Made by a program: the position numbers and the translations under genes
From: Lytechinus pictus
Lineage: Eukaryota
Length of the DNA: 64,000 nt
Assembly (NCBI RefSeq): GCF_037042905.1
Contig: NC_087250.1
Span: forward strand, 16,804,001-16,868,000
Reading direction: 5' to 3'
In this document: piece after piece, positions 4,174 to 28,921 of the stretch
Layout of the letters: each line of letters opens with the position of its first letter
How positions within the stretch are numbered: position 1 is the stretch's first letter
The notes under the pieces: model-generated
Databases searched by the model: none
What the model saw: the letters and a program-made list of their open reading frames with translations, nothing else
What the model was told of the DNA's origin: nothing

Positions 4174-4545
4174 GATGATGATGGTGATGATGATGATGGT
4201 GATGATGATGGTGATGATGATGTTGATGATGACGATGATGGTGATGTTGATGATGACGATTATGGTGATGATGATGGTGATGATGATGATAATCATGGCG
4301 ATGATGATGACACAGATGACGACGATGATGAAAATGATGAAGCCAATATGATGATAATGATGATGACGATGAGAATGCTGCTGCTTCTACTCCAGATGAT
4401 GGTGACTGTGATGGTGACATATATGATGAATAATCATTATATGATGGTGACGGCAACACTTACTGTGGTGCCGAGGAGAATAATGACGATGATGATGAGG
4501 ACGGTAATACTAGCGGTGATGCCAAAATAGATAACGATGACGTTG
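4174..4545. repeat. (GAT)n degenerate microsatellite
   Basis: Runs of gatgatgat/gtgatg; explains the spurious poly-His/Ile/Met ORFs. Confidence 0.9.
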
Positions 4546-4728: not shown

Positions 4729-4737
4729 ATGGCACGG
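4729..4737 (+). CDS. 4TM-ZU5-DD gene coding exon 1 (M-A-R)
   Basis: aaacaATGG Kozak-like context, upstream in-frame TAG at 4684, donor CGG|GTAAGC phase 0. Confidence 0.55.
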
Positions 4738-7700
4738 GTAAGCATTTAAACCTTAATCTATTCATTTTTATCTTTATATATATGAATTTATTCATTCTTT
4801 TTTTATTTCCTTTTTGATTAACTTGTTTATTTTATTGGTCCATACTTTTCCTATGTAGTAATATACACAGTGAAATTAATGTTTAATAAAATAATTATCA
4901 TCTTCATATCAGTCATGTTCAGCCTACTGCAAGGCGAAGGCCTCCTCAAGTTGGTCCCAAAGGTTCTTGTCTTATGCTGATGCAATCCACTTTGTGCCAA
5001 TAAACATTTTGAGCTCGTCGCTCTATCTCAATTTTTGTCTACCCCGATTTCTTGATCCGAGCCATGGTCTTCATTCTGTGATACGTTTGATCCATCTATT
5101 GTCATATGATCTTGCAAGATTGCCGGCCCATTTCCATTTCATTGTTTTAATCAAAGAATTAAACAAGTTCAACTTTTAAGTAATAAATATCAGAAATTAA
5201 CATTGTTGTTTAAATGTTAACATTTTGTTTAAAAATTAAAACGATACCTTATAATACAAACTATATGCCTCAAAGAAGAAAACATAACTGAGCTACGCTT
5301 TCTCGATGAACAATTCAGGGTAAAGTCAGCCTTCATATAAACAACACAATTAGCGAACTCCTTCTTCCCCAAAAAACAATCACCTGTTGGAACAATCTCA
5401 CTAGAGAAATTGTCACTTAAAAAAAAAGGCCCTCCCAAAACCAAACCCCTCAAAATATAAATAATACCACCACTCTCGTCAGCCCCGAGTAACACACCTG
5501 GCGGAGGACTTCGGGGGAAACGACTATAAGGTAATACGAGTTTCTTTTTTTTCAAATGGTGGTATTTGTTCTCTTTATTTCTCTTGTTTTCCTAGGTGTC
5601 CCAATTACCAGCTGCTTTTCAGATTTCAGGAGCTGTTTTTCTAATAATATTTGGCATCGTTGCCATCGTATTATCATGCAAATGGTCATATTTCGCTGCT
5701 CCAATTATCGTTGGTATATTGGTAGGTATTGTACACAATGTGTTGTTGCTAAAAGAGATCATCCTTTCCAATCTATTTAATAAACATTAAGGATGACAAT
5801 GAAATACTATTCATTTTTCAAGAGTAAACTGTTTGTTTGTTTTGTTTATTTTTATTTCTGCGTTCACAATACATTATCAAAAATATTTACATAGTTTTCG
5901 ATATACAAAATAATCCATAATGTATACAATATAAACATAATACATAATTAGAAAAAAATGTTGTGGGCACATACTTCACATTTTAATAATAATAAAAAGG
6001 AACATTAACAAATGAACGCAGGAGACCGCCATCGTGAGCGGTTAAGCTTGTAATTGATGGCGGCCTGTTAACTGTTAACGGGCTGTTTTAATCAAATTGT
6101 AAATAACGGCTTTATAAGCAAGACTAGAATGTGAATTACCAAATCGTGAGTAAAATGTTAAAGATTTTGAAGTTTGTAAATATATGTATTTAAAATATTG
6201 AATTATTTTGTTCCTATTCAATATAAAGTAAACTATGATATTTCTGTAAAATCAAGAATGGTTGACAACATCATCTGTCTACTCAAGCACAAAGATTTGA
6301 ATTAAATTAAGATTGGCTATGGCGATAATATGATACAGAATTCAATTTCAAATATGATTATTTTGATAATCAGTATCATTATCGTGGTTATCATTATTAT
6401 TTCGATTATTTTTATTGTCATAAATATGATTATTTCAATTATAATTATTATCTGTATCAATATTATCATTGATATTGTTGTCATTGTTTGTATCATTATC
6501 ATCATTATATTTTAACAGATACTTGGTCCAACAGGGATCATTGGAATATGTTTTTCCAGAAGAGGAATTGCTCTTTCGGTAAGCATTTAAAGCATTACAA
6601 AACTTATGCATTATTTGTTGTTTTTGACATATTTGTTTATTGATATTGTTCTTACTCTTCTAGATGATGTTTTCTTGTCAGTTATGTAAAATAATTAATA
6701 TCAAATCTGTCTTAGTATCCTTTCTAAATAAATGTTCATCTGCGTCTTAGGTGCAGTCTTAAAATGTTGGGCAACATACTGTCCACACAACAATTGGTTT
6801 AAAAATCAATCCAACACTGTGTAGTTTTCAACCAATACTGTGCAGTTTCCCCCAAAAGCACACATTATTGGTTTAAAACTACCAAGAAATTAATAAGGTT
6901 TTAACCAATTGTTCTGTAGACAGTATGTTGCCTGAAATTGTTAAGAGTGCAATGTACCAAATATAGGTCAAAATATCGTATATATTCATTTATTTCTTTA
7001 TTTATTTACTATATCTGAATATCTAGTTGGTCTTCTTTATGCAGGGTATTTTTCTATTGAAGTCTTTTATTCCATTTAAACATGATACAAATTAATCAGA
7101 TCAGATTCAAAATAACAAATGAACATTATCGGTGAGTGCAAGTCAGACTTAAGATTGTAAAAAAAAGTTCAGCACCAAATAGAGCATATGGAAATGAGAA
7201 GGTCCACTCAAAGCAATGCCTGTGAAATGTTGACCCCCTTTTATCACTTTCGACCTGTTCAATATCTAATATTATTCTCTCAAAGTGCCAAGGGTTGAGT
7301 CTGTACTGATGAAATATACATTAAAACATCTTCAATAATGAATTACTGTTGTACACACTGTATACAAAAAAATATTTGGTAAAATTTTAACCAGCACTAA
7401 GGTAATTATGTGTCCAAACATTTTGGGGCAGTAATTTACCCTATGCGTGAAGCATATTGTCTAGTAAGGTTAAAAAAACAGCTATTACTTTAGAATTGGC
7501 AAAGTTTCATCACACTGGATAAATAAAAATGTCCAATGTTGGTTCAACACATAATTACCCTCATGGAGCACTTTTACCCAATATTTTTTTAGATTGTATG
7601 GACTTTCATTTTCTAGTAAACTTTTGTTAATCCTTTGACTATTAATTTTGAATCATTTAAAAGGAATAACTCTAGATTTACATACAGTATATGGGAGGCC

Positions 7701-10700
7701 TTTAATGATATTTTTTATTGTTCAAACATTTTATCTTAAAAATAACATCCGGTGATCTTTCATTTTTCTTCCAACTTGCAATTTTTTTAAACATTCAATT
7801 CAAGCATGGTATTGATTTCAACAAATGCATGCAAATGTCAGTCAGAAGGCTGAAATTGGCATGTAAACATGATATTCTCAATGATAATACATTTCAAATT
7901 ACAAGACAGGAATATGTGAATTTTACAATAACGTGATACAATTATGCATGTACAAAATTTGAGCACACTAAACATGTTAAATATCATGATGATTTTTAAT
8001 TCGACCCACATAAACTACTTTTATTTTACTTTAATTTTGTATTTTACCCCAACAGCTTACCAGGCATAAGCTATTTTTTTAGATTATACAAACCTTGTTC
8101 TCAAATATTATAAATAACGTTCTGTGATCTTTATTTTTTCTTCAATCGTGCAATTTAATTATATACTTAACTTTAATTTAATCCAACGATGCTTGTAGGA
8201 CTATGCCTGTTCATTTATCCAAGGAAATAAACTGTATGCTCCACACTATCAGTTTCAATTAGTTGCATGTGGCAGGTAGTTGCATGTGGCAAGACTGGAA
8301 TTCCATTAATCAAAATCATACACAAAAGCAACATCCTTCCAGTGATTATCAAGCCGATTCTTAAAACAATCTACACTCTAAACATTGTTGGGTGAAAATG
8401 CTCTATGATGATATTTATGTGTCCAACCAACAATGTGCATTTTTATTTTTCCAGTGTGATGAAAATTTTGCCCATTCTAAAGTAACTGCTGCCTATTTCT
8501 TAAACCATACTGGACAGCATGCTTCCCACATTGGGTAAAATACTGCCCCAAATTGGTTGGGCACATAATTACCCTCGTGCTTGTTGAAAATTTACTTTTT
8601 TTTTACAGTGTACAGATATTATATTATCATATTATATTACTATATTATATTATATTAATATTCCCTTTTATCCCATCAGCCTACCAGGCATAGGTCCTAC
8701 AGGGTATTATCTTGTATATCGAGTCTTATTTCGTTGGCATTAGTTGCTTTCTATTGCTCCGTGGCTGCTTTGGAAGATGCCTCACAATGCACACCGGGTT
8801 TGATGAGTTCGTCATTTTCTTGCGAACAGTTGGTGAGTTGTCCAAATCATCTGTGTAATCATAAGGCAACACCCCTGGAATTCTGAAAAGATTGGAGGAA
8901 TGTAACCAAAATGAACTTATTGTGAAGTGAAGCCCTTTTTGTCAAATTTCTAGGGACCAAAATGACCTACATTTTGAAGTGAAAAACTTTTTTGGGGGGC
9001 TTGTCACATTTACATCAGCACCACCATTAAAAAAAATCGTTCCCAGGACACTGCATTGTAATCATCATTTATAGCTGTAATCATGGTAATGCTGATGAAT
9101 TATGGCAATAGCCAAATAAAGCACCTTTTTTGTATTGATCAGAATTTGCTTAAATCCTGAAGACACCCTAAAAATAGACACGCAAACATAATATTTGTTT
9201 TCCTATGATATACGATATAATTTCAAGTTAAATTCATTCGGCCCGTGTCCCGTTTTCTGTACCCTGTTTGAATACACACCAAACCAAACGCCTACAAAAT
9301 CTTCGACACATATTTAAGAATTTAAGGGTTTTGTTCCCTCAAATTTGCATATAATTATGTAAACAAGCTCAATATAGGAGCAGATCCCCGAATAACTGGG
9401 GGAGGGGGGGAGATCGACATCAGTATAGGCCTTCATAAAGTAACAAAAAAACATGAACAAAATTAGAATCAAAGGTTAGAGTCTTAGAGTTTGGGCAATG
9501 CAACTGAGGATCCATTATCATTTTAAGGGGACGTGTAATGTCCCAGAAATTAAAAAAACAAGTAAAATAAAACACCCAAAATAAGAAATGGATTTTGTCT
9601 TCGGAAAAAAAATAAAAGCAGGAAAAATAAACAAATAAATCCTTTAAAAAATAATAAAAATCGTTACTTAGGAGTGAAAAGCATTTTGGTCTATAGAAAA
9701 AAGTGACAGGCGGAAAAAACGCCACAGAAAGGAAGTCACTTCCAATTAAGTCTCAGTCTGGGGGAGGGCTTAATATTCAACAGCGTGACCCCGTCCCTTC
9801 TTGGCTCTGCCCTCGCAACCCCCCCCCCCCCCACCATCGCCCTCTCCTAGAGTCAGCCCTGATCAAATATAACTGCAAAATATAATATATTATATCGTCT
9901 TCAACGCTTACAAACTTTTCACCACATTCTTGCCAATAAAAGGAAACGAGACGGGCCATTGACGGGGTGGTCGCCGCGGTTGCATGCCTCGAGTTCATCG
10001 TCTGCATCCAAATAGGTTTGGAAGTACAATGGTGTACGTGCTTGGGTCGAAGGGCGACGGCAACAAAGGTGAGCTAGTCCCAGTCACACTTAATAGGCCG
10101 ACTCCAGACCGACCAAAGCTATTACGTTATTTTTAATAGGACATCATCGGTTGGTTTGGAGTTGGATACGTTGGTGGCAAGAAGGAAATATTTTCAATTA
10201 TTACGGTTGCCCGGATGACAATATTCCAATATTCCTGCCAGCTTAAAAGGGTTCTGTACAATTTTTTAATGGAAAATCAGTTAGGAGTAGCTCGGTTCTC
10301 ACTCTCCTACCCACCTACACAAAAGTTTTTGTACCTTGCAATAATGCTTACTTTAAAGACGTGGTGTGTGTGTGGGGGGGGGGGGGGTGAATTCATTCCA
10401 TAGTCCCGTAACACTTTACCCTAAAATTAAAATAAAGTTGATACTGGAAGCATTTGATAAAACACAACGATCTAAAGGTCTGGTCCCACTGCACTTGCGG
10501 ATGCAGAGAGGATGTAAAACGGAAAAGAATTTTGTCATCCGTTTGAAAACGTTATGTATCCGTTGAGGACTCTGTGCACACATGTTTCATACGCTCTATA
10601 CATGCTATATGTCCATCGAGCATCCGTCTACTGTGATTTCATTGTTCGCCCATTTTGACCATTGTCTGGAGCAGATGAAAACGGATGGAACCACCCCGAA

Positions 10701-12321
10701 ATTTTGCTTGTCCGCTGTATCCGATATGAATACGTTTTGTGTCCGCCGGGCAAATGGGACCAGGCCTTAACACCAAACTCACACATGGTGCTATTGCTAC
10801 GCGTTAGCCAGTGAGAAGACAATACAATACCAAAATATGCTTTTAAAGCACTGGAAAGTACTAAAGCATTAAATTAAACATATAAAAATAAGCATACAGA
10901 ATTGTTAATTTTCGGCGCGCTTTGCGCTCGAAATCCTGTAATTGTGGACAGTTTTCATCCCACCCCAATCTGAAGCATGGACCCCCCCCCCCTATATGAT
11001 ACTATCATAGGAATTTCTACGTATTACGGGGGAAAACGTTTTCCACTTTTGATGTCTCATGCTATTTTTTTTTATTATCATTTATTTATTATTATTCATT
11101 TATTATTATTTATCTATTATCATAATTTTTTTTTTCGGGGGAGGGTTGTTCAGATTCGTAGATTGCGCATAAAAGTGATTGTCTTCTTCATTGTTATAGA
11201 CTTTGTCTCCGCAGAATCTTGATGGAGGTAATTTTTCATTGCCCGAAACTGCGTCAGAGAAAAAACCAAAAGGTAAAATTTTCTACAAAAAATATGGATA
11301 AAAATGTTTCAAATGGAAATTAAATTAAAAAAATGCACTGATGATGAAAAGTACGCATTATCATGATACTATGATGAACTTTAATACACCTTTATTAAAC
11401 TAAATGAATTAATTTACTGTAATTAATGAATAAATACACGTTTATCAAATAGATTAATAAATACAACCTTATTAATCACATATAACTAAAGATGTATCCA
11501 TAAGAAACAAAAAAAAAGTATAATTTGGCTCCAACGAAGATTTTTAGTCTTATTTTGCTTTGGGGCTAAGATGCATTCCTGTCTAATCCTTCTGTATCAT
11601 TTCCATAACGTTATATATATACACAAACACAGTGCGTCCCACAAAAAACGAAACCATGATTTATAAATGACTTATCATGCCTTAATCGCAAAAACAATAG
11701 AAAAATGACCTATCATTGTAAAGCTTAGGGTCTCCTCTTTCATTTGAAATAACTTTAATTATTCCTCATTCATGCATGATTGAGCAAAACCAATTTGAAG
11801 AAAGGAAACCAAAAAGTCATTTGGCGGGCGGTATCTGAGTTTCAAAAAGCAAATCACATTCTAAAAAAGTTCAATATCTGCTGTTTAATTTGATACCTCA
11901 ATTACAGAAAACGGTCGAGAAATAAAAAAAAGTTTTGTTTACTTGAAAAAACGCTTGAATTGATTTCATAAAGTAAAGAGCTAGGATATAGCTTTTAGAC
12001 TTTATACTCGACACTCCGTTTTGTTGACGATCAGTCATGCAGACAGTCTTTTGTTTACTATGCGATAGCTTCGGTGGGAAACCGGGGAAAACGTGTATGT
12101 TTCATGAAATTATGGAAATACAAGCATTGTTTCGAAGAATCATACCTTTTTTTTCAACATTTTCTGCGATTTAGCTTTCAAATTAAAGGGCAGATACTGA
12201 ACTTTTTAGGCGTGTGATTTTCTATTTGAAATTTTGATACCCCCGCCAAATGACTTTTTGTTATCCTTTCTTCAAATTGTTTTTACTCACTCATGCCTTG
12301 ATGAAAAATCGTGTATGTTAG

Positions 12322-12395
<74 letters not shown>

Positions 12396-15300
12396 TATAC
12401 ATATTACATTGTATTAATTTAGGTGCCGATAATACAGGCTATGAAGGCGGGGATAATGAGAATACAATCATACGCCGTAAAAAATTGGTTGGTGGTGACA
12501 TGAGGGGGATTAGGAGAACAACTAAGGTAATTATTAAATCTTTTTTCCTGATTTTCCTGTCCCCCCGTACGAATAAGTTAAATTTAAAAAGTCTAAATCA
12601 TAACAATAATAATGAAAGTTTGAAGATATTTCTAAAATGATTATTTTAAACACACACACATACAGAAGTGGTTAGAAGCTGTACATTAAGCGAGTACAAC
12701 GAATAGTTATAATATTGCTACGTTCTTTATTTGTATGGGTTTTTTTTCTCCCTTCTTTGGCTTATTACTGAAAGAAATAATCCAGAAATTCTGTAACAAC
12801 TGTGAGGATAGAAGTTGTTCTTCTACTCAAACATTAAGAGTAGTTACTGATCATAAAACAATTATTTATAATATACCCATGAATTTAAAACTTTATTGAA
12901 AAATTTGAAATAACTATAGGTAAGCTACTTTCCGACCATGATAATTATACATGTATAGATTTACAACAAAACATTACGTTTATTTCTTTCTCCACTTCGT
13001 TTGACATGTGTTACTTGTCTCTGTTTCATTACTTTACAGTACCCTGCAAGTACAAATGATTTACTAGACACCAGAATGTTTAAGGTAAGGCCTTTTCAAT
13101 GCATAAAAATGATGGTTTAGATATTGTTTAGTAAATAATTGTACCGATAAAATACAAATAAAATGAATAAAAAATATAAAGACGTTTCGAATAGAGGGGG
13201 TGGTTGTCGTAAGTTGTACTTATCCTAGAAGGTGGATGTCCGCGGGGCGGACGTCCAGGGGGTGGATGTCTGGATACGATCACCCTTCAACCATCGTAAA
13301 TTTGAAGTAGGTTTGGCGACATTTTCACCTTCTTTTAAAACAAATTGTACTTTAAAACTGTCGAGAATGATGTCGCATTACAATCATTTGTCATAAACAT
13401 GTTTTTAATATATTCTTCATACCATTGTTTTTGCCTGATATCAGTCCACAGGGCCTACACAAGACTTAGAAGAGCTTTGTGGGCCACCCTCTGTCCCAAG
13501 GAATATTTCAGAAGGCAAGTCTTTCAATTTTAATGTAATCTGGAGCTAATGGAAGTCTAAGGGGAAGTTGCAAGAAAATCATTGCAATCAATTGCAAATT
13601 TCAGTTGCAAATCCTGGGGTGTTTCACAAAGATTTAAGTATGACTTAGAGTCGCACTTAAATGCTTCGTTGCGTGTGGTATAAAAGGCATGACCGCATTT
13701 AGTGGTCAGATCATGGGAGGAGGACGTGCATTACTGCGTATTGATCAATAAGATTGCGCGTTCTATATCTTGTACTCGTCGGCATTTAAGTGCGACCTAA
13801 GTCGTACTTAAATCTTTGTGAACACCCCCAAGAAGTGATATGTTGATTTGAAATCAAGCAAATGAATTTATTCTTGTCGATGGAAGAAGCAGACTAGTAA
13901 TCAATTGTAAATTTACTATCGATTACAATCCGTATGATTTATTTAATGACCTAAAATGATTTGCAATTAATTTCAAGTTTCTTGCAACATCCCATTAGTT
14001 TAGTCTTAGGCCCGCATACTGAAGACAGGTTTAAATTTAACCCTGGTTTAAAGTTGTGGTTTAAGTATGGAGAGCCAATTTGGGCACGAATCCCTTTCAG
14101 AGCACATCTTATTTATTCATTTGACACTCAAGTTGTTCACAGTGGTCTGGGAATGATAAATGCAGTATTTTTCCTTATTATGAATGCAAAAGGAACAAAA
14201 AAGGTAACGATAAGAAATTACAATATAATAATTTTAGCACAGAGTTAGACCGTGGTCTAAAGTTAAACCTGACTTCAGAATACAGGCCTTAGTATTCACA
14301 TGCTATACACTATGATTCGTATTTGATTTTGTCTGATTTAGTGCTATTATGTGTTTCAAAAACAAAATAAATAAAATAATTGACCCGATGACTAACTGGT
14401 ACATAATACAACAGCAACAAGTGAAATGTAGTATCTGTATTAAACGTAATATGCAGGCTTACTCTATAGTTCGAACCATTGTGGGTTTTTTTTTTTTTTG
14501 GGGGGGGGGGAATATTGCCAGCGGTAAGCGAAAAATAATTTCGCGAGCGGTAAGGCTTGGATGACTTTTTTGACCAGTATATCTATTTACCAAATTAAAT
14601 TCTTTCTGACAATCTAGAAAAAAAAATGACACAAGATGTCGAATTTGTTCGCTTGTATAAAAAAATACGTGTGTCCCTGATTCAAATTATGGTTTATGTG
14701 TGATAATAATGATAATTATTACCATTATTGTTATTACTGTTATCAAAATAATGATAATTATTATATTTATCCTCATCATCCTCATCATCATTTTTATTAT
14801 TTACATCTTCAGGGTTGGACGAATTAGGAGCAGGAGCAAGCGGAGGAGTTAGAATGCCTGACTCTGAACTCTTCCTTCCACACAGTCGTCTTGAGAAATT
14901 AGCCGTTCATGTTCGTATAGGCATACTAACGATTTTCCTGTATATTGTTACGTAACTTTTTTTTGCTGGGGAATCTGCATGTAATTTCTTTCATTATGAT
15001 GGCTCGTCACTTCCCCGCTGCGAAAAACACGGTATCATAGCGTGTACACAATTTGTTCTCAGTGTGATCACAGTGAGTTTGCAGTGTGTTTGAATGAGGT
15101 GTGTTTGCAGAAAGTTCACAGTGTGTTCACAGTGGGTTCGTAGTGTGTTTGCAGTGAGTTCGCAGTCATATCGCAGTGTGTGCACAGTTTGTTTGCAGTG
15201 TATTCACAATGTGTTTGCAGTAATTGTGTTCACAGTGTGTTCAAATTGATTTTCGAGTTAACAGCGAGTTCAGTGTATTCACAGTGAGTTTGTAATGTGT

Positions 15301-18300: not shown

Positions 18301-21300
18301 GCAGTGTGTTTACAATATCATAAAAGTGTGGACATTTTTTGTTCCTAGTTAAATTGAAATCATAATCTGTTGTGTGTGTGCTTTTTTACCAATAGGATCA
18401 ATTTTTGGATGATATGGAAGAAGACCCAGATGATGACGGTATGTATCTTAATAGTGGTATTAACAAAATTCAATAAATCGGGGCTATATTTTTATTTCAT
18501 TGTGTTCATATAATTTTCACTGTACACATGGTGTAGAATCAAGATTTCAATATCAACTACACCAGATTAGGGATTGCGGCTATCCCCCCCCCCCCCCCCC
18601 AAAAAAAAAAAAAAAAAAAAAAAAAACAAGAAAAAGGAATATTTTGTTTTTATTCCTGAAAAATCCTTGAAATAAAATGTAAAGTGAATAACAGCCCTTA
18701 ATCATTAAAAGGCCATTATCAATCCTTTTATATTCAGATCCAGACATGTCTAGTCAGATGATCCATCCATCTAGAGGAGGTACAATCATGCTACCTGCCC
18801 ATGGTATTAGTCTCTTTATCCCAGTCTGGGCTTTACGAAAGGAATGCAGAATCACGATGAAGGTAGGCTGGACGACAATTGATCCGATAGCACATTGGCA
18901 CGTTGAGGCAAACATAAAATCTAACCTCCCAAACTAAACATGCTAAATAAACCCTAATCATTACATCAACATTATTCTGAACCAAAAACTAGATTACCAT
19001 TCTAAAGCTACCCCTATGACCTCTGGTGGGTGTTTCATAAAGCTGTTCGTAAGTAAAGAGCGACTTTAAGAACGACTGGCGATCCATATTCATTGGCGAT
19101 CGTTAAGCGCGTAGGAAAGGTTCACCAGTCGTTCTTAAAGTCGCTCTTAACTTACGAACAACTTTATGAAACGGCGTCCTGATATATTAAGGCCAAAGCA
19201 AATGTCGCAAGAGCAAATATCCTGTTATCTGGATTCTGTATCGTGAAAGGGGCATTGCAGGAAGGCTTTAAAAAAAAATTTAACTTTCATTTTAGTCTCC
19301 GATTTCATCATTAGATTATATCTGGAGTGTGTCATGTTACCTTTTATTAAAAAAATATATACATTTTAGGATTTTATGATAAAAAAAATGAACTGAACCG
19401 AAAAAGACCGTAGTTTATATCGCCGATGGTAATAGCACGTTTTCTCACAGGCGACGCAGAACAAACTCAGGAACACAGTAAATCTATTTCAAATGCTCAT
19501 CAAATGACGATGAACAGCAGCGAGGTCTTTCACGCAAATTGGTGAACCTAAACAGAGGTTCGTCGTAAGTCTCGGAGCTGACGAATAATTGCGAATTCAT
19601 CGTTTGTCCAGAATCCCGAAGGCAACTGCTCAGTGTTTTGATTTAATCCCCAATTTTTGACAAATACTTTTGGTTGTGCTTTGTCATGAAGAACATTTGA
19701 CAATACATTTGCTGTGTTCTATGATGCGTTCTTCATTAAAGTGCAAGACTATTTACTGACTCTGTAAATGGGCAATGGAACGAATTTTGAAATGTGGGGC
19801 GTGGGCGGAAAGTAGGGGGACCATGCAAAAATTCGCAATCAGATTATCACTTTTACGTTTTCTGTAAGTTTGTTTAAAAAAAGTGGGCGGACCCCTGTTA
19901 CACCCACAAATGTAATAATCGCCCACAAATGTAATAACGCCCACAAGTGTGATAACACTTTACCCACAAGTGTAATAACGCCCACAAATGTAATAACACT
20001 TTACCCACAAATGAAATAATTTTGATCGCCCACAAATTTAATAATGACTTTACCCACAAATGTAATGAATTTGAAGGGATTTTTGGCGAATCCGTTCTAA
20101 ACTGAAATCCTATAGTAATACGTTCATAAAGCACAAAAGTGCAAAGTCTTTTTTTCCAGACCCGGTTAATAAAGAAAGTATAATATAATCCAAAGTCTTT
20201 TCTTCCAGACCCGGTTATTTCAAAAATTATAATATAAGTCCAAACTAAGATATGATAATGATATTCCAGTGGAATAAAAATGAGAATCGAGCTTAGTCTT
20301 TTTCCAAACCCAGTTAATTAAAACTGGTGGTATCAGTGTCTTTGTTGTTGTTTTCACTTATACGGCGCATATTGTGAATATACGCGCTAAGAGTAAATTG
20401 AGAATCAAGCATAGTCTTTTCTCCAGACCCGGTAACTAAAAACTAAAACCCTATAGTAATGTGTTCGTATAGCACAAATGTGCAAAGTCTTTTTTCCAGA
20501 CCCGGTTAATTCAAAAATTATTATAAGTCCAATGTCTTTTTTCCAGACCCGGTTGTTTAAAAAATTATACTGTGAGTTCAAAGTTTAAAGTTTCGCTTAA
20601 TTTGTATTTTTCAGAGAACTGGGTGCGGGGTACAGACAACACTCTAAACCCAAGCATTTTAACTGGGCTTAATTTTGAAATTTGGTCTTTTTTTTTTTTT
20701 CAATATTTCTTTATTTAAAAAAAAAACGGGTCTAGACGAAAGACTAAGCATAATACTCGTGTTATTCCACAGGAATAAGAATATGACAAAGTCTTGTGTT
20801 TTTAAGACTGTTTGAATTATTTTTAAAATGACTGGGTCTGGAATAAAGACAACATGTGCTTTTCTACATGGTCTTAATTTGGAGGACTGTTGGTTCTTAG
20901 ATTCGTTGTTGGGGTTGGGTTTTGTTGCTTTTTTATTCTTGAAATAACTGTGTCTGGAGGAAAGTCTACAATCGATCTTCATGTTATTCCACAGTAATTA
21001 GATTATTGGGTATTCGTTTTAGAATATTTGTAAAAACTATCTTTTTTTTCAAATAATAACCAAGTCTGGAGAAAGGATGTTTGCTTTACCCATGCATTAT
21101 TACAATGTTTAGTAGGGGTCTTAGTATTATTTAAAAAAAACTGGGTGCGGGGCTAATACATATTTTTACACCCAGTTACACCCAGTAAGGGTGTAACTTT
21201 TGAAGAGTGGTCTTAGATTTGAACTGTTGAAGTTTTTTTAATTCTTTTTTTTTAATAACCGGGTCTGGAGAAAAGAGTACGTTTTAAAACTCATGTTATT

Positions 21301-24300
21301 CCAGAAGAATAAGAATATGATATAGTCTTACGTTAGAATTTTTTTTTTTTTTTGTAATTTTTTTAATGATTAGGTCTGGAATAAAGACAATGCTCTAAAC
21401 CTCTTTTTAAAACAGGTTCTTAGGTTGAAGGATTGTTTGGTCTTAGATTTGGAATTTTCTTATTATTACTGTTAGCGTTATTTTGAAAAAAAAAGTAACT
21501 GGGTCTGGCTGAAAGACTATGCTATATGTCCATGTTATCCAGCATTAATAAGATTATGGGGTCTTTATACTGTTGTTGTTGTTGTTGTATTGTTATTTAT
21601 AATTTTCGAATAACAGTGTTTGGAGAAAAGACTAAGCTCGATTTTTATTTTTATTCCACTGGAATATCATTATGGTATCATAGTTTGGACTTATATTATA
21701 ATGTTTGAAACAACCGTTCTGGAAAAAAAAGACTTAATTTAGACTTATGTCATAAATATTTAATTAACCAGGTCTGGAAAAAAGACTTTTAACTCTTGTG
21801 CTACATGAACACATTACTATAAGGATTTAGATTTTAGTTTTAAGTAACCGGGTGTGGAGAAAGACTACGCTTGATTCTAAATTTACTCTTAGCGCATATA
21901 TTCACAATACGCACCGTGTAAGTTCAAACAACAACAAAGACATTAATTCCATCAGTTTTAATTAACTGGGTCTGGAGAAAAAACTAAGCTCGATTCTCAT
22001 TTTCATTCCACCGGAATATCATTATCGTATCCTAGTTTGGATTTATTTTATATTTTTTTCAATAACCGTGTCTGGAAAAAAGACTTTGCACCTTTGTGAT
22101 TGTGTGCTATATGAACGCATTCCTATAGGATTTTAGTTTAGAACGGATTCGCCAAAAATCCCTTCAAATTTATTACATTTGTGGGTAAAGTCATTATTAC
22201 ATTTGTGGGCGATCAAAAATTATTACATTTGTGGGTAAAGTGTTATTACATTTGTGGGCGTTATTACATTTGTGGGTAAAGTGTTATTACATTTGTGGGC
22301 GTTATTACATTTGTGGGTGCAACAACCCCGCCCCACCCCCCGCCCCTCCTTCCCCGTTTCTATAGCCAATTGTTTTAAGACTTTTTCTTTGTTGTTGTTG
22401 TTGTTGAGTGATTATCAACCTGAGTATAATAACTTCTGGATTATTTTTATCAATTCATTATTTTCATATTGCATGTTACGTATGAGATAACAGGTTCATT
22501 TAAGATTTTGTAGGGCGAATATGGAAATATTACATATTCGGAATAAAAGACTTTCTTCTTGTCGGTAGAGGCCTACCCAAAGGTTTTGTAATGATTTGAT
22601 ACTGTTAGGTAAGTTTCCTAAAGCCAGCATTCTCTATCCTCTCTCTCTCTCTGTTCATCTCTCCTTCTTTTAGGTTCTACCACAGCCATCAAGTCCCCTT
22701 ATCACAGAGGATGAGGCATTTGTGTCACCGGGTGTGATCTTCGAGCCATCGGGGACCATTTTTGATACCCCATTGAGGTTGGTGGTTCCCCATTGCGCAA
22801 TATTAACAGATCCCTCCATGGCCATGGTCAACATGCACGTCACACAGGGCGATAAAGGTGAATAAAATTTAATAGTACACAGGTTGTAGAGATTGGATCA
22901 GTGATTGGTCAAAATGCCATCACGTGATCATAGCTAGCCGCAAGGATCATATTCATTGCAGTGTAGGTTTTGACGTTACCTCAAAGAATACGATCAGATG
23001 AGGGCGTTATATTGAACATGGAGACGTCACCCGCTGTTGATGTTACTGTTACACTAATTCCTAACATTTGTTTTGACATTTAGTTTCTAATTTATCATCA
23101 TAATAATTATACAGCCATTATTATAGAGACAATATTTCTTTTCTAACTCAACCAGTAAATTATGATGAAGATGAAGAAAAAAACAAAATAATTTCGAATT
23201 AATCAATTTTTTTCCATAATTTTAGTCACCAAGGAAGAGCTATCACCAACTGGGATGCCTCGGTGCGTTGTCAGGCAGGACATGATTGAAGTGTACATCA
23301 ACCACTTCTCAATCTGTGAAATGTTCGTGGTAATTTCGGACTATTTCCTGGGAAAGCGTGTCGCATCGACGCCCTACCTTCCCAAATCACTCAGCCGTCT
23401 ACAACCGCAATGCTGCCACCTACGTTTGTACAATGACACCCCAGGCCTTGAAGACGTGAGATATTTTCATCAAAATCATTATAAAAACAATCATATTTGT
23501 GCTAGCTCAATGTAATGAATTTGATGTTTTAATTTTATCATGTTATTGTCAAAATGTATGGTCGGAGTTTTTATTTTGTTTTATTTATTTATTCATTTAT
23601 TTACCTATTTATTTATCTATTCATTATTTATTTATCTAATATTTATTTTCTATTTATTCATTTAGTTATTTATCTTTCACGAAAACGATATTAAGTTGAA
23701 AACATTAAAGAGTTGATATTTTTTATTTGCGTTTGGGTTAAACTTTTTTTCTAAATTGTCTTAATCTTGTGTTAATGTAAATTAAAAGTTAGATAAGTTA
23801 GAAAAGTTTGAAGAACATAATCTGAACAAAATATTAATTAGATCTTTGGGCAATGTGAATTTTTCTTCTTCGTCATCTTCTTCTTCATTGATAAACAGAT
23901 AATTGGTACTGAAGAAGAAAAGCTTGGTTACGTCAAAATGGCACCGACCAAGAAAATATTCGTCCTTTGGGAGAAGGGAGAACTCAAGATCAAATGTGAC
24001 GTAAACAGTGGCCACGTGACTGAAAGTGAAAAGGTAAATGGAATTGAAAATCAACGAAAAGAAAATCTGCTGCGTCATAAATCATATCATTCTTAGGATT
24101 TCATCACTGGCTGGTAATATACTCCTCATTTCAAACCACTATTTAACAAGAACTTCAAATCACCATGTATAGGTGAATGACTTTAAAGTGCAATGCACAT
24201 ATTCAATCTTGTATTTTGCGCACTGAACATTTGTGATTTGTACATTTTTTTATGTTTACAAGACACCATCAAAGTAGCAATACATAGTGTAATATTAGAA

Positions 24301-25281
24301 AAAAGTTCACTCATAACAATATTGTAATAAATATGATGTAGGATTTGTATAGCGCACATATCCACCTTGTTAGGTCCCAATGCGCTCATATATTACCCCG
24401 GCTAAGCTAGTCTACCGATTCCGGTCCTGACAGCTTTTTGAAGAAATGCTTCCTGCCGGTACCCATTCACCTCACCTGGGTTGAATGCAGCACAGTGCAG
24501 GTAGATTTCTTGCTGAAGGAAAACACGCCATGGAATCAAACCCAGTACTGTACTGTATTGTTTTTGCTTTGCTTTGAATTTGTTTTCCTTTTTTTTTTTG
24601 GTTGCATCGTGCTTTGTGGGGGAGGGGTAGTTCGTATGCTAGGAATTATACCTGCGTATAACTTTATATTATAAAACTCCAAAATTATAATTCTTAAGTC
24701 ACACCGGTTGAGCCGACTACTACAACAATCAAAGCTATTACGTTATTTCCGATGACACACAATCGGTCAATTCGGACGCAGTTTCGTTGATGTGACTAGG
24801 GCATTAGCAACGAACGTAGAGGGCAGCGACACACACCAGCTGCACTGATGTGTGTTGCTGCCCTCTACGTTCGTTGGGCATTAGTATTTTTTTTTCTATT
24901 TGAATTTTGTTCTGCTTCTATTCTTGAACGTAGGCTGTGTCACTAGACGAAATCTACAGACTGGATAGAAATGTTCTCAATTTCTTAGTGAAAGCGAGCG
25001 GTAACTCTGATGTTTTTTTTACTTTCCAATTCCGGCCGCATTGTGACGATGGTCATGCCTTCAGTGCTAAATTCGGTAAGCAACTCGATTTCTGTTATAG
25101 TCATTATCATTTTCATCATCATGATTTTTGATTTGATATCACTTTATTGAAATCACAATAAAGGAAGAAATTTGCAAAGTCAATACAAAACATAACAGAG
25201 ATTAAGATAGGCCAAGGTCATGACGCATTACTATTATAAGTAGTAGTAGTACTAGTAGTAGTACTAGTAGTAGTAGTAGTA

Positions 25282-25355
<74 letters not shown>

Positions 25356-26321
25356 TAGCAGTAGTAGTAGTAGTAGTACTAGTAGTAGTAGTAGTAGTAT
25401 AGTAGTACTAGTAGTAGTATAGTAGTAGTAGTAGTAGTATAGCAGTAGCAGTAGTAGTAGTACTAGTAGTAGTAGTAGTATAGTAGTACTAGTAGTAGTA
25501 TAGTAGTAGTAGTAGTAGTATAGCAGTAGTAGTAGTACTAGTAGTAGTAGTAGTATAGTAGTAGTACTAGTAGTAGTACTAGTAGTAGTATAGTAGTAGT
25601 AGTAGTAGTAGTCATGGTGGTAGTAGTAGTAGTAGTAGTAGAAGTAGTAGTAGTAGTAGTTGTTGTTATTGTTGTAGTATTGGCATCAGTAATGTTATGA
25701 TTATTCTTAATATTATTATTATATTTATCATTATTATTATTTGTTTTATCATTTTCATCATCATTCTTCTAATAATTATTTCATTATTATTATCACCATC
25801 ATCATCGACATCATCATTATTATTATTATCATAATTACTATTATTTTTATCATCATCATCATTATAAGAGGTAAATCAATTGTGAATATCGTTACGGCCA
25901 GGAATGATCGCTTCAGTTGACTGCAACAAACTATGGATTAAGTCATTATAACTACTTGATATAAAAAATTGAAAGCCATGCACACACCAGCACACAGCCT
26001 TTCTGGCAACTACATCATTCTCACATCCCGACCCCCCCCCCCCCCAAAAAAAAAAAAATGCATCGAGTTCGTCACCTACCCTATTTTTTTTCTTTTAATA
26101 CGCTATATCAGAAGCGATTTAAGAACACAAAATCTTTGTTTTTCTTGACAAGATCAAGATGCAATATGCAAAATTTGCAATCAATTTTGGCAAGGCCTTT
26201 CCATTTTTTTTCTCAAATGCAATATGTTGCATTTGATTCCCACGTCTAAAATACATATATTTGTATAAAAATTCAGATTTAGTCAAAGGTGGATTTAGCC
26301 CCTTTATATAAATAATATAAA

Positions 26322-26394
<73 letters not shown>

Positions 26395-27782
26395 AATAGG
26401 GATAGGGCTATATATGCATAATTATTATTTTTGTTCAATACATTACACTGGAACTAAAGTCGTAGTGATCAACATCTCTTAACTGCTTTCTATTATTATC
26501 ATTTTCTTTCTTTGTATTTTTTTTATGTTGCAGGTGACATAACTGACGCGTGAGTATTCCCAAATATTGTAAAATATGAAACTTAATAAAATCCAGATTC
26601 TCCCAATAACCTCTATTTTCATTCTACTTAAATAAACTCATCCATAATGTACATTATATATCCTGGACCTAGAAGTAGTACGTGAAATACTTGGAGAACA
26701 AATACAATATTGCATGATTATTTTTAACACAGATTAACGATAATTTATCTTTATGAAATTATATTTCTGGTTTTACTTTGATGATATAACACTTAATATG
26801 ATCCAAGAAACATCATATAAGCGTCATGTCCTGATCATATATATATTTACTTTAATTTTGCTTAAGTGTTTCTAGTTGTAATTCGTTACCTAAAGCATGC
26901 AAAATATGTAGGTCCTTTTTTCTAGATAATATTTTTTAGATTATATAGCCGTATCTACGATTAAATGAAATATTGAAAAGTCCCTTTGTTTACTAAATAT
27001 CACAATATTCAAATTGTTTACAGATTTGCCTTCAAATGCCACTTCGTTAAACTTCCATACATGACTTTAAAACGGCAAAAAAGGGGTGGTTTTAATAAAG
27101 CTGCTTAACTGTCACCAGGAGGATAAGATTTTAACCTATTCACAATGTTTCCCTATTCAGACCAAAAGGTTCTCTCTCTGCACCTGAACCAGATGGTGCA
27201 ACGTCTTCGGGGAGCCCAAATGGGGCACAAACCAAATCAGAGTAAGTCTACAGAGTATCTTAAATGCTCAGTGGCTTTCGTGAAAATTTGAGTCAATTCA
27301 TTATAGCCTGAAACGTACAGCTACCAATACAAGACGGCATAGCCGTAGGGAGTAGGGACTGGCTTGCAGTGGGCAGTACCCCCCCCCCCCCCTTTACCGA
27401 TTTTTTTTTAAGAAGTATGTTTCAAAATTCACAATAAGTGTGGAGTAAATATTTCAATTTAATAAAAAAAAACATGACAAACTTGGTCACTTTGCTCCAT
27501 TTTTTTTGAAAAATTGTATGAAACTTGCCCCCACGCCCCCCCCCCCTCCCCCGTAAAAAAAACATCCCAAAAATGTCGTTCCTTCATCCCTTCTTTCTTA
27601 TTTACTAACTTGCTTACTTGCGTTCTTTCTCCCTGTCTCAGAGTCTCTTTCTTTCTTTCTTTCTTTCTTTCAATCTAGCCTTCACTATCTCTCTCTCTCT
27701 TTATATATATATTTTTTTTTTCCACGGCATTTACTAAACCTTTTGTGATTACTTTATTCCATATGCCGAAGCAGACTATTTC

Positions 27783-27850
<68 letters not shown>

Positions 27851-28340
27851 TAGTCTTACGCACACAAAAAGACTCTTGCACAAACCCCCACACATCCACC
27901 CTAACACACACTAGCACAAGCATACATCCACATTGTATACTATCTCACATGTGTGGGGGTTTTATAATCATGATTAAAAAAAAGGGTAACATGTTTTGCA
28001 TTTTTTTCCTGCTCTATTCAATGTTCACACAAGGTCATCATCAGCCTCCTCAAAAAGGCTGGATGACAAGGTTCTCTACGATCTAGCCAACGAAATCGAA
28101 AACGATGACCATCTTGATAGGCTGATGCAAGCTCTGAAAGTCCCCTCTGGGGCGCAGCAACGGTGTCACGATCTCAACAGGCTGGAAGGCCAGGTTACCG
28201 CCAGAGGAACCCACAGAATACTAATGGACTGGAGAGCCGAAACGGCAGTTGCAGAACAACACGACAGGCTGAAGGGAGCCCTCACCGATGCCAAGTTATT
28301 GGATCTAAGGGATAGATTCTTCTCCCTTGAAATCACCTGA
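4729..28340 (+). CDS. Spliced gene (19 coding exons, ~693 aa): MS4A/CD20-like 4-TM domain + ZU5 + UPA-like + death domain protein
   Basis: join(4729-4737,5596-5721,6519-6578,8680-8832,9943-10068,11200-11227,12423-12526,13040-13084,13445-13514,14813-14910,18396-18438,18738-18862,22674-22857,23226-23455,23899-24033,24934-25075,26534-26549,27161-27241,28034-28340) = 2082 nt, one open frame to TGA. All acceptors are AG; donors are GT except one GC. Four hydrophobic helices at the N-terminus, ZU5 motifs (GGTIMLPAHGISLFIP; SPGVIFEPSGTIFDTPLRLVVPHCA), HFS motif, death-domain pattern in the last exon. Confidence 0.75.
5596..5721 (+). CDS. 4TM-ZU5-DD gene exon 2, TM1 and start of TM2 (MS4A/CD20-like)
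   Basis: cctag|VSQLPAAFQISGAVFLIIFGIVAIVLSCKWSYFAAPIIVGIL|gtaggt, 126 nt, phase 0-0. Confidence 0.8.
6519..6578 (+). CDS. 4TM-ZU5-DD gene exon 3, end of TM2
   Basis: aacag|ILGPTGIIGICFSRRGIALS|gtaagc, 60 nt, phase 0-0. Confidence 0.8.
7357..7598 (-). mobile_element. CACT-terminated MITE family copy
   Basis: Reverse-orientation relative of 8374-8610 and 58571-58822 (shared gtaattatgtgtcc / ggggcagta / cactggataaa blocks). Confidence 0.6.
8374..8610 (+). mobile_element. CACT-terminated MITE family copy
   Basis: taCACTCTAAAC...TTTTACAGTGta; aligns with 58571-58822. Confidence 0.65.
8680..8832 (+). CDS. 4TM-ZU5-DD gene exon 4, TM3 and Cys-pair loop
   Basis: catcag|PTRHRSYRVLSCISSLISLALVAFYCSVAALEDASQCTPGLMSSSFSCEQL|gtgagt, 153 nt. 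Confidence 0.8.
9943..10068 (+). CDS. 4TM-ZU5-DD gene exon 5, TM4
   Basis: aaag|ETRRAIDGVVAAVACLEFIVCIQIGLEVQWCTCLGRRATATK|gtgagc, 126 nt; D-x9-EF pattern resembles MS4A TM4. Confidence 0.8.
10476..10767. mobile_element. PIF/Harbinger-like MITE
   Basis: TIR AGGTCTGGTCCCACT / AATGGGACCAGGCCT with TAA target-site duplication. Confidence 0.65.
11200..11227 (+). CDS. 4TM-ZU5-DD gene exon 6 (short linker exon)
   Basis: ttatag|TLSPQNLDG-G|gtaatt, phase 0-1; an in-frame alternative acceptor (ctccgcag) would start the exon at 11215. Confidence 0.6.
11630..12305. mobile_element. Tc1/mariner-like MITE, right end truncated
   Basis: CAGTGCGTCCCACAAAAAACGAAACC terminus, same family as 56955-57774 and 58833-59635; ends near a (TA)n tract. 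Confidence 0.75.
12328..12392. repeat. (TA)n microsatellite
   Basis: Pure TA run; similar runs at 26325-26392 and 27788-27848. Confidence 0.95.
12423..12526 (+). CDS. 4TM-ZU5-DD gene exon 7 (linker)
   Basis: tttag|(G)ADNTGYEGGDNENTIIRRKKLVGGDMRGIRRTTK|gtaatt, phase 1-0. Confidence 0.7.
13040..13084 (+). CDS. 4TM-ZU5-DD gene exon 8 (linker)
   Basis: ttacag|YPASTNDLLDTRMFK|gtaagg, phase 0-0. Confidence 0.7.
13445..13514 (+). CDS. 4TM-ZU5-DD gene exon 9 (linker; GC donor)
   Basis: atcag|STGPTQDLEELCGPPSVPRNISE-G|gcaagt; supplies the phase 0-to-1 shift the next exon needs. Confidence 0.6.
13561..13993. mobile_element. MITE with a second palindromic MITE nested at 13616-13829
   Basis: Outer TIR GGGGAAGTTGCAAGAAA / TTTCTTGCAACATCCC; inner GGGGTGTTTCACAAAGATTTAAGTA / TACTTAAATCTTTGTGAACACCCCC. 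Confidence 0.6.
14009..14288. mobile_element. PIF/Harbinger-like MITE
   Basis: GGCC...GGCC termini with TTA TSD; related copy in opposite orientation at 41404-41716. Confidence 0.7.
14813..14910 (+). CDS. 4TM-ZU5-DD gene exon 10 (linker)
   Basis: cttcag|(G)LDELGAGASGGVRMPDSELFLPHSRLEKLAVH|gttcgt; only phase 1 is open; donor weak, so the end is uncertain. Confidence 0.55.
15040..18320. repeat. 3.3-kb intronic satellite built from CACAGTG/TGTGTTCACAG units with higher-order duplication
   Basis: Hundreds of degenerate cacagtg units; unique landmarks recur (aggttgcttcc 15402/16860; gatcagggccatatc 16240/17965). Confidence 0.9.
18396..18438 (+). CDS. 4TM-ZU5-DD gene exon 11 (acidic)
   Basis: aatag|DQFLDDMEEDPDDD-|gtatgt, phase 0-1. 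Confidence 0.7.
18738..18862 (+). CDS. 4TM-ZU5-DD gene exon 12, ZU5 domain N-half
   Basis: attcag|DPDMSSQMIHPSRGGTIMLPAHGISLFIPVWALRKECRITMK|gtaggc; GG-x-I-x4-GISLxIP-x-AL ZU5 signature. Confidence 0.85.
19025..19179. mobile_element. Palindromic MITE
   Basis: gtttcataaagctgttcgtaagt...acttacgaacaactttatgaaac inverted arms. Confidence 0.6.
19896..22324. mobile_element. 2.4-kb non-autonomous foldback element, ~660-bp TIRs, 5-bp TSD
   Basis: TGTTACACCCACAAATG ... CATTTGTGGGTGCAACA; ACCCC duplicated at 19891-19895 and 22325-22329; arms carry tandem cccacaaatgtaataa and ttccagacccggtt subrepeats. Confidence 0.85.
22674..22857 (+). CDS. 4TM-ZU5-DD gene exon 13, ZU5 domain C-half
   Basis: tttag|VLPQPSSPLITEDEAFVSPGVIFEPSGTIFDTPLRLVVPHCAILTDPSMAMVNMHVTQGDK|gtgaat; SP..PSG..F..P..L..PHCA ZU5 signature. 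Confidence 0.85.
23226..23455 (+). CDS. 4TM-ZU5-DD gene exon 14, end of ZU5 (HFS motif) and start of UPA-like region
   Basis: tttag|VTKEELSPTGMPRCVVRQDMIEVYINHFSICEMF...RLYNDTPGLED|gtgaga, phase 1-0. Confidence 0.85.
23899..24033 (+). CDS. 4TM-ZU5-DD gene exon 15, UPA-like region
   Basis: aaacag|IIGTEEEKLGYVKMAPTKKIFVLWEKGELKIKCDVNSGHVTESEK|gtaaat. Confidence 0.75.
24340..24535 (-). mobile_element. SINE fragment (body of the tRNA-derived SINE family)
   Basis: Shares ccggctaagctag / cctgccggtacccatt / gctgaaggaaaacacgccatgg with 44820-45105. Confidence 0.7.
24808..24876. mobile_element. 69-bp hairpin micro-MITE with 8-bp TSD
   Basis: 32-bp arms CAACGAACGTAGAGGGCAGC.../...GCTGCCCTCTACGTTCGTTG, 5-nt loop; GGCATTAG duplicated at 24800-24807 and 24877-24884. 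Confidence 0.8.
24934..25075 (+). CDS. 4TM-ZU5-DD gene exon 16, UPA-like region
   Basis: cgtag|AVSLDEIYRLDRNVLNFLVKASGNSDVFFTFQFRPHCDDGHAFSAKF-G|gtaagc. Confidence 0.75.
25239..25660. repeat. (TAG)n microsatellite
   Basis: ~420 bp of agtagtagt with interruptions. Confidence 0.95.
26534..26549 (+). CDS. 4TM-ZU5-DD gene exon 17 (16-nt microexon)
   Basis: Long polypyrimidine tract, ttgcag|GT GAC ATA ACT GAC GC|gtgagt; phase 1-2 bridges the flanking exons. Confidence 0.65.
27161..27241 (+). CDS. 4TM-ZU5-DD gene exon 18 (Ser/Gly/Pro linker)
   Basis: attcag|APKGSLSAPEPDGATSSGSPNGAQTKSE|gtaagt, phase 2-2. Confidence 0.7.
28034..28340 (+). CDS. 4TM-ZU5-DD gene terminal exon, death domain
   Basis: SSSASSKRLDDKVLYDLANEIENDDHLDRLMQALKV...THRILMDWRAET...DRLKGALTDAKLLDLRDRFFSLEIT*; L..LA..I / IL..W / L..AL helical death-fold pattern. 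Confidence 0.8.
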
Positions 28341-28578
28341 AAATTGAAAACACTACTAGTATATGGTCAGAGAAATGACCACTACAAATTTATAAATGTG
28401 TATCATATTTTTATGAAATTGTATTGACCGGAAAAAACACTGGCAAATTTGAATGTAAATTGTATAGACTGGATTAAGCCAGTCATTTTGTTTTCTGGTT
28501 TCTTGTTTTGTATCATTTTGCTTTGTCTACTTTTTTGTATATTTCAAAAGTTAACAGAGCAGAAATGGAAATAGAAAT

Positions 28579-28790
28579 ATAAAGTGATCATTTTACTGCG
28601 CTGTTATAGGCCTATGTATTTAGGTTTTATTACTCAATTTGATATTTATTTTTGTATTCCTCTAGTCGGAGAAAGATATTATACATAAAGTGATCATTTT
28701 ACTGCGCTGTTATAGGCCTATGTATTTAGGTTTTATTACTCAATTTGATATTTATTTTTGTATTCCTCCAGTCGGAGAAAGATATTATAC
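28579..28790 (+). repeat. 106-bp tandem duplication in the 3' UTR
   Basis: ataaagtgatcattttactgcg...gaaagatattatac present twice, one mismatch seen. Confidence 0.85.
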
Positions 28791-28791
28791 A

Positions 28792-28834
<43 letters not shown>

Positions 28835-28921
28835 CACAGACTTATTCGCGCAATGTGTATTTTAAATGAATATTATTTATATTGTAAATAACGGGGATCC
28901 ATTTTCATTTGTGTGTCGTTG

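Follow-up and report, generated by a model that had tools for sequence, protein, structure and literature searches.

The window analysed in this study is a 64,000-nt stretch of the Lytechinus pictus genome (G000:C6:16804001-16868000; genome of 812 Mb). It contains the gene LOC129263279 at positions 4729-28340 on the plus strand. The gene model joins an N-terminal domain of four transmembrane (TM) segments, the 4-TM domain, to a C-terminal module of ZU5, UPA and death domains (ZU5-UPA-DD). RefSeq labels the product 'uncharacterized protein'. P-numbers are used below as labels of the compared proteins.

Two RefSeq isoforms of LOC129263279 were encoded exactly by the window. The open reading frame (ORF) at 22674-22865 led to a 100% identical RefSeq model, isoform X2 (P0001, 703 amino acids, aa), and isoform X1 (P0003, 708 aa) fell in the same 90% cluster. 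When the whole window was searched exhaustively for exact spliced matches, P0003 and P0001 each had one solution, letter for letter. Both isoforms had 19 coding exons, from the ATG at 4729 to the stop codon at 28338-28340. All acceptors were AG, and all donors were GT except a GC after exon 9. The sole difference between P0003 and P0001 was the exon 6 acceptor, at 11200 or 11215 (15 nt). The preliminary description of this DNA had proposed a 19-exon ORF of ~693 aa. Its exon count, its ends and its exons 9943-10068 and 18738-18862 (exons 5 and 12) were reproduced, while the length was corrected to 703/708 aa.

Domain organization of the encoded protein

Residues 304-708 of P0003 are a genuine ZU5-UPA-DD module. 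The ZU5 domain starts in exon 12 (18738-18862, aa 303-344), which covered Pfam ZU5 profile positions 7-38. Its core, with a VPHCA motif, was encoded by exon 13 (22674-22857, aa 345-406; profile positions 46-90). Exon 14 (23226-23455, aa 406-482) contained the end of ZU5, including the tripeptide HFS, and the start of UPA. The UPA beta sandwich (aa 483-575) continued through exons 15 (23899-24033) and 16 (24934-25075), which together span 23899-25075. Exon 17 (26534-26549) was a 16-nt micro-exon, also present in a paralogue described below. UPA was joined to the death domain by a disordered Ser/Gly/Pro linker from exon 18 (27161-27241, 81 nt). The six-helix death domain and the stop codon were in exon 19 (28034-28340, aa 607-708). 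All exons were on the plus strand.

Pfam ZU5 (PF00791) was matched by two of the eight exon ORFs scanned and by residues 314-394 of P0003 (E 2.6e-12, 47.3 bits, cut-off 21). The PDB matches of P0003 in phmmer were ZU5 chains only. The module was modelled with AlphaFold2 (AF2) from the allele P0006 (440 aa, 98% identical in the module) and 39 relatives (alignment A2). The model had a mean predicted local distance difference test score (pLDDT) of 85.5 and showed two domains rich in beta structure, one disordered stretch and, at model residues 350-438, six helices. Foldseek ranked the UNC5b cytoplasmic domain (3g5b) first (E 6.9e-19; the 430 aligned columns took in the death domain), followed by the ankyrin-B ZU5-ZU5-UPA-DD (2.9e-14), the NLRP1 FIIND (8.5e-8) and CARD8 (4.9e-5). 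In VIA-align, UNC5b had a Z of 23.8 with a root-mean-square deviation of 3.0 over 269 aligned residues (model 35-306, ZU5 and UPA); the Z values of the CARD8 and NLRP1 FIINDs were 15.2 and 14.5. The A2 profile searched against PDB sequences matched ankyrin-2 (1.3e-12, including the AnkB UPA-DD stretch 333-578) and UNC5B (5.3e-12). It also matched the death domains of TNFR1 (3.1e-6), ankyrin-3, PIDD (1.3e-4 and 3.2e-4), RIPK1, FAS, CRADD and FADD. Pfam Death was found in 12 of the 21 relatives scanned, coinciding in six of the 21 with the stretch aligned to residues 607-705. The Pfam ZU5 match, the AF2 model and the fold and profile searches were all in agreement with the earlier claim of a ZU5 domain, a beta-rich region and a terminal death domain.

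The HFS tripeptide lay at residues 432-434 (exon 14), in a turn ahead of the last ZU5 strand of the AF2 model. It was present in 28 of the 34 A2 rows with residues at this position (the others had HFC in two cases and HFT, HFF, NFA and HGA in one each), and six rows were gapped. The '...ldH' of the A2 profile was aligned with Gln-676 of UNC5B (chain position 136), one residue before Leu-677. The alignment with the NLRP1 C-terminal fragment (chain 6x6a_G) began at model residue 167, immediately past HFS (model 164-166). According to a passage of D'Osualdo et al. (PMC3210808), Phe-296 at the CARD8 cleavage site is equivalent to Leu-677 of UNC5b, and PIDD and Nup98 use HFS. An excerpt of PMC7883297 describes PIDD1 autoprocessing, of the PIDD/Nup98 type, as common to 'the transmembrane receptor Unc5CL', and states that PIDDosome activation requires the PIDD1-CC fragment. 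By these alignments, the HFS of the urchin protein lies at the PIDD/NLRP1-type autocleavage position, the known cut site in PIDD1, UNC5CL, NLRP1 and CARD8. By analogy with these proteins, the urchin protein probably self-cleaves at HFS.

The 4-TM domain was encoded by exons 1-5, which were in phase 0-0 throughout. Exon 1 (4729-4737) encoded Met-Ala-Arg and was followed by the donor GTAAGC. Exon 2 (5596-5721, aa 4-45) contained TM1 and the beginning of TM2. TM2 ended in exon 3 (6519-6578, aa 46-65), where the basic cytosolic TM2-TM3 loop began. Exon 4 (8680-8832, aa 66-116) encoded TM3 together with the outer loop and its two conserved Cys. Exon 5 (9943-10068, aa 117-158) encoded TM4 and a juxtamembrane basic stretch, where the putative CD20-like domain ends. 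Hydropathy analysis of residues 1-158 placed the four hydrophobic segments at ~13-31, 35-57, 74-96 and 122-144. The four helices and the two-Cys TM3-TM4 loop of the preliminary description were thereby recovered. The number of Lys and Arg residues was 1 in the N-terminus, 1 in the TM1-TM2 loop (3 residues), 5 in the TM2-TM3 loop, 2 in the TM3-TM4 loop and 3 after TM4. With nine such residues inside and three outside, the N- and C-termini are predicted to be cytosolic, and the ZU5-UPA-DD module is therefore placed in the cytosol. This prediction was consistent with the placement proposed previously. The TM3-TM4 loop contained four acidic residues and the two Cys. The Cys pair and an Arg-x-x-x-Asp motif just ahead of TM4 (R127 and D131 in the L. 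variegatus protein P0009) were invariant in all four aligned members.

The two parts were connected by residues 159-303 (exons 6-11), a low-complexity linker rich in Asp, Gly and Glu. It was modelled as disordered in the L. variegatus orthologue (pLDDT 31-40). Exons 6-10 (11200 or 11215-11272, 12423-12526, 13040-13084, 13445-13514 and 14813-14910) encoded aa 159-288. Exon 11 (18396-18438) encoded the acidic DQFLDDMEEDPDDD; it was the last gene-specific exon and ended in phase 1.

Duplication of the cassette and distribution of the probable fusion

Exons 12-19 (the cassette) had a close copy elsewhere in the genome. A genome search with the cassette protein P0002 found two close copies only, each in six pieces of 66-95% identity; the other matches at E<=1e-10 (n=6) were 34-44% identical. 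The second copy was on the minus strand of the same chromosome, 1.4 Mb away (C6:18,203,502-18,218,418). This locus encoded P0007, an 'ankyrin-1-like' protein of 796 aa with ankyrin repeats followed by ZU5 (Pfam). Its exact model had 11 exons, and the cassette exons of 125, 184, 230, 135, 142, 16 and 307 nt were equal in size to those of LOC129263279. The 16-nt micro-exon of the paralogue was at positions 41969-41984 of the reverse complement of C6:18198001-18248000. The 81-nt exon 18 was used in LOC129263279 and in the L. variegatus protein P0004, and was not part of the paralogue model.

The window was compared with the paralogue locus by blastn. Collinear homology to the ankyrin-ZU5-UPA-DD paralogue (C6 18.20-18.22 Mb) was confined to 18631-~30093 on the plus strand, with 74-91% identity; besides this segment (18631-30093), matches of the repeat at 11629-12310 were obtained. 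Since the homology started at 18631, the duplicated unit begins in intron 11, ~107 bp before exon 12, and includes the 3' flank. Exons 1-11 were unique to LOC129263279, and exon 12 was entered in phase 1 in both genes. The coding sequences of the cassette copies were 95% identical, with nonsynonymous (dN) and synonymous (dS) divergences of 0.029 and 0.129 and a dN/dS of 0.22. For the death-domain exon alone, the dN/dS between the copies was 0.14. The cassette value of 0.22 indicated purifying selection on the cassette.

Both halves of the protein were matched only by P0001, P0003 and P0009 among the 162 proteins compared, including 150 best representatives. A word-indexed search with residues 1-165 for fused relatives, among proteins of 389-1239 aa, found none but the protein itself. 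Relatives of the 4-TM part were two among the 150 matches listed, P0043 from Diadema antillarum and P0092 from S. purpuratus, and neither had ZU5 or Death. P0043 (511 aa) contained two complete tandem 4-TM modules, the result of either internal duplication or merged tandem genes. The closest other genome match to the 4-TM part had E 1e-4 over 42 residues, and there was no close paralogue.

These results suggested that LOC129263279 is most likely a young exon-shuffled fusion, so far specific to Lytechinus. In the proposed sequence of events, the recipient would have been exons 1-11, a single-copy gene whose product was a divergent CD20-like tetraspan ending in a disordered cytosolic tail. It would have gained exons 12-19 by segmental duplication from an ankyrin-repeat ZU5-UPA-DD gene 1.4 Mb off. 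The phase-1 acceptor of the duplicate, ~107 bp inside its edge, and the phase-1 donor of the host would then have given one open frame of 703/708 aa.

Pfam ZU5 had at least 118 matches in the genome, many of them in tandem clusters (C8:40-42 Mb, C6:17.8-18.1 and 24.5-25.0 Mb, C21, C9 and C37), which fits a large lineage-specific expansion. Relatives of the cassette death domain were fused to NACHT, TIR or TNFR domains (P0020, P0095, P0110, P0118 and P0125). These data point to a large, shuffled death-fold repertoire. Death-fold domain shuffling in invertebrate deuterostomes has been documented for amphioxus with cDNA support, as stated in part of PMC2575513. A literature search, in which some papers were represented by title or abstract, found no paper on a fusion of MS4A/CD20 with ZU5 or death domains. 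Within the same scope, the earlier remark that the architecture was not recognised as described was borne out, with the protein itself already in RefSeq as 'uncharacterized'.

Repeats were found at several positions in the gene. Most of intron 10 was a degenerate satellite (15042-18314, ~3.3 kb, no strand assigned) with an 11-bp unit, GTGTTCACAGT (~293 copies, 59% matches), and higher-order units of 42-161 bp. Its GC skew was strongly positive (0.19-0.28), and it contained long spurious Cys/Val-rich ORFs on the plus strand. The satellite was considered as the duplication breakpoint and rejected; the breakpoint was ~300 bp further downstream, in intron 11. The ~680-bp repeat at 11629-12310 in intron 6, probably a transposable element outside the duplication, also occurred in both orientations upstream of the paralogue cassette (76-83% identity). 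Just 3' of the stop codon, at 28579-28791 within the segment shared with the paralogue, a 106-bp unit was present twice with 99% identity. Long microsatellites were at 25239-25660, 4173-4372, 12324-12404, 26305-26391 and 27786-27848; the microsatellites included (AGT)n (144 copies) in intron 16, a (TGA)n tract immediately 5' of the ATG and several (AT)/(TA)n tracts by exons 7 and 19. Further downstream, an ORF at 50808-51815 on the plus strand matched positions 103-205 of the Pfam RVT_1 profile (E 1.3e-16), a retrotransposon reverse-transcriptase fragment.

Gene continuity and identity of the N-terminal domain

The current RefSeq annotation fused both halves in one gene with two isoforms that differ on the 4-TM side of the linker. 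Extra isoforms are generally called by the NCBI pipeline only from transcript alignments. The L. variegatus protein P0009 (358 aa) spanned the 4-TM domain, all of the linker exons and the first ZU5 exon, and read on into intron 12; its identity to residues 1-330 was 75%, with 99% of this stretch covered. The older L. pictus models P0005 and P0006 joined exons 10-11 to exon 12 onward. The whole gene was thus chained by the overlap of P0009 with P0005 and P0006. Judged by these computational gene models from two species, the 4-TM and ZU5-UPA-DD halves are likely to belong to one gene and one transcript.

Several points weighed against a functional fused protein. Continuity of exons 5-12 on one mRNA was deduced from gene predictions, and, as L. 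variegatus protein may have been among the inputs to the L. pictus model, the two would not be fully independent. Read-through past the exon 5 donor reached a stop two codons later, so a tetraspan isoform of 160 aa could exist on its own. Pfam UPA (E<=1), Death and CD20 had no match on the exon ORFs or on whole P0003. Conservation of the linker between the two Lytechinus species was poor: exons 7-8 had in-frame gaps of 6 and 7 residues, a divergence that suits a disordered tail but also weak constraint. No fused relative was found outside Lytechinus, so there was no deep conservation to argue for function. In the annotations themselves, the older L. pictus set contained two proteins with ZU5-DD only, P0005 and P0006 (312 and 440 aa), which began at a Met in exon 10 and had no 4-TM part, and the L. 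variegatus locus was annotated as two genes, P0009 ending in intron 12 and P0004 starting inside exon 13. Such annotations would be expected if a predictor had merged two neighbouring genes, one for a stand-alone CD20-like tetraspan and one a 5'-truncated cassette duplicate encoding a soluble protein of ~376-440 aa with its start in exon 10 or 12. P0002, the paralogue cassette modelled from the exon 12 Met, and the stand-alone 4-TM relatives of S. purpuratus and Diadema, which are without ZU5 or Death, are in line with this explanation. However, the L. variegatus split lies past the first ZU5 exon, and P0009 therefore crosses the disputed gap between the 4-TM and ZU5 parts. The paralogue was also cut short in the older annotation (P0002), and is currently a 796-aa ankyrin-ZU5-DD protein; the old split therefore looks like incompleteness and is weaker counter-evidence. 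The phase-1 entry of exon 12 needs a coding exon upstream, no stop interrupted the frame over six small canonical exons in either species, and two isoforms were annotated at exon 6. A merger of two genes is thus rather unlikely. It is still less probable, and indeed very unlikely, that the fused transcript is an evolutionary accident, either read-through without a stable protein or a copy becoming a pseudogene, with no receptor function. The fusion was confined to one genus among the proteins examined, the linker diverges fast and the model P0009 ends within ZU5, as such an accident might look. But the 708-codon frame was intact with canonical splice sites, the cassette dN/dS was well below the value expected from one neutral copy, HFS and the fold-defining residues were retained, and the L. 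variegatus cassette protein P0004 was 95% identical to P0003.

For the N-terminal domain, the preliminary description had used the label MS4A/CD20. The topology and the CD20 resemblance of relatives supported this label, whereas a direct Pfam CD20 match was not obtained: residues 1-158 of P0003 had none even at E<=10, and a genome scan with CD20 (PF04103) gave 21 weak matches, all of them outside the window and the loci of the weak 4-TM paralogues. The AF2 model of the 4-TM part (L. variegatus orthologue, 4-sequence alignment) showed four helices and was poor (mean pLDDT 46.6). A Foldseek search with this poor model had no matches at E<=0.001, and CD20 chains were absent from the rows listed. 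A wide VIA search placed generic helical bundles on top (Z 8-10), the 'IgE receptor' 8yvu_F (Z 7.9) being tied with many others. The profile of the 4-TM alignment A3 had only a chance-level match in the PDB (E 6.8), and an Atlas structure search gave a MARVEL cluster at TM-score 0.71 and unnamed fungal clusters. The domain could be of another four-helix membrane family, MARVEL-like or new, with the CD20 topology alone in common. Against this stood P0159 (279 aa) and P0160 (283 aa), stand-alone proteins of the S. purpuratus P0092 cluster without ZU5 or Death. Their Pfam CD20 matches covered positions 3-150 of the 156-position profile (E 2.6e-5, 24.8 bits, below the cut-off of 27.9), and residues 9-138 of P0003 aligned with 35-168 of P0159, the same stretch as the CD20 match, with 34% identity and a pairwise E of 2e-16. 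The ESM Atlas feature neighbours were CD20 clusters for residues 1-165 of P0003 (26 of 30, score 0.91) and for P0159 (29 of 30, score 0.91), the latter including echinoderm clusters. Another four-helix family is therefore an improbable identity, and the N-terminal domain is, from its sequence relationships, quite likely a divergent CD20-like tetraspan.

Proposed function and comparison with known systems

Taken as a whole, LOC129263279 is somewhat favoured to be a young Lytechinus chimera of a CD20-like tetraspan and a duplicated ZU5-UPA-DD, an autoprocessing death-domain signaller. Such a protein would be a membrane protein with both ends in the cytosol and a short two-Cys loop exposed outside. 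The ZU5-UPA-DD module would be held inside on a flexible tether of ~145 residues. Autoprocessing would split the protein into 4TM-ZU5, which stays in the membrane, and UPA-DD, which remains attached non-covalently. If the anchor clusters or the N-terminal part is removed, the death domain might then seed a complex that signals cell death or inflammation. The full mechanism, in which a CD20-like tetraspan receptor signals as a membrane-bound PIDD/NLRP1, with a constitutive HF|S cut and UPA-DD released on clustering or N-terminal loss to nucleate a death-domain complex, is tentative and on balance doubtful. The 'receptor or channel-like sensor' and 'innate-immune' roles of the preliminary description are putative.

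If this reading is true, a hitherto undescribed coupling of an MS4A-type membrane protein to death-fold signalling has been found, and the fusion is seen at a divergence of a few per cent from its origin, while the donor gene persists. If the fusion is expressed, a multi-pass CD20-like anchor joins UNC5 and UNC5CL among the membrane couplings of ZU5-UPA-DD. It would also provide a testable link between MS4A and death-fold signalling, and the signalling mechanism of MS4A-type proteins is still debated. The case would moreover be one of clean, datable exon shuffling, with donor, recipient, breakpoint and phase match in one genome. Its reach is limited to one gene in one genus, in a phylum where rampant shuffling of death domains was known before.

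The 4-TM domain resembles MS4A/CD20 proteins (PF04103) in its four TM segments, predicted cytosolic termini, very short TM1-TM2 loop and larger two-Cys TM3-TM4 loop. It differs in its N-terminal cytosolic segment of only ~12 residues and in having no direct Pfam match. An MS4A protein with a death-fold domain was not found described in the literature search, which included some papers by title or abstract. The paralogue P0007 has the same cassette with identical exon sizes, including the micro-exon; in contrast to LOC129263279, it has ankyrin repeats in place of the 4-TM domain and linker and no 81-nt exon 18, and P0003 has no ANK match.

UNC5CL has a single N-terminal span. Compared by description, UNC5CL (ZUD), which autoprocesses by the PIDD/Nup98-type mechanism (an excerpt of PMC7883297), is like the urchin protein, with its HFS in ZU5, in having an N-terminal membrane anchor, a cytosolic ZU5 and a death domain, whereas the anchor of LOC129263279 is four-pass and CD20-like, with a two-Cys outer loop and a tether of ~145 residues. 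UNC5A-D, represented by UNC5b (3g5b), gave the best structural match over ZU5 and UPA, and the Foldseek match extended to the death domain. LOC129263279 is unlike UNC5 in lacking an Ig/TSP1 ectodomain and a single TM, Pfam finding ZU5 only on P0003, and in UNC5b the Phe of the cleavage site is replaced by Leu (a passage of PMC3210808), whereas LOC129263279 has HFS. The NLRP1/CARD8 FIIND shares the ZU5-UPA fold and has its cleavage motif at the equal position; those proteins are cytosolic, with a CARD effector and the motif SFS, whereas LOC129263279 has a death domain and HFS. PIDD1 is soluble, with leucine-rich repeats and two ZU5 domains, and LOC129263279 has none of these. The two are alike in the ZU5-UPA-DD organization with HFS, the site of autoproteolysis in PIDD1, whose released DD-bearing fragment is needed for signalling (excerpt of PMC7883297).

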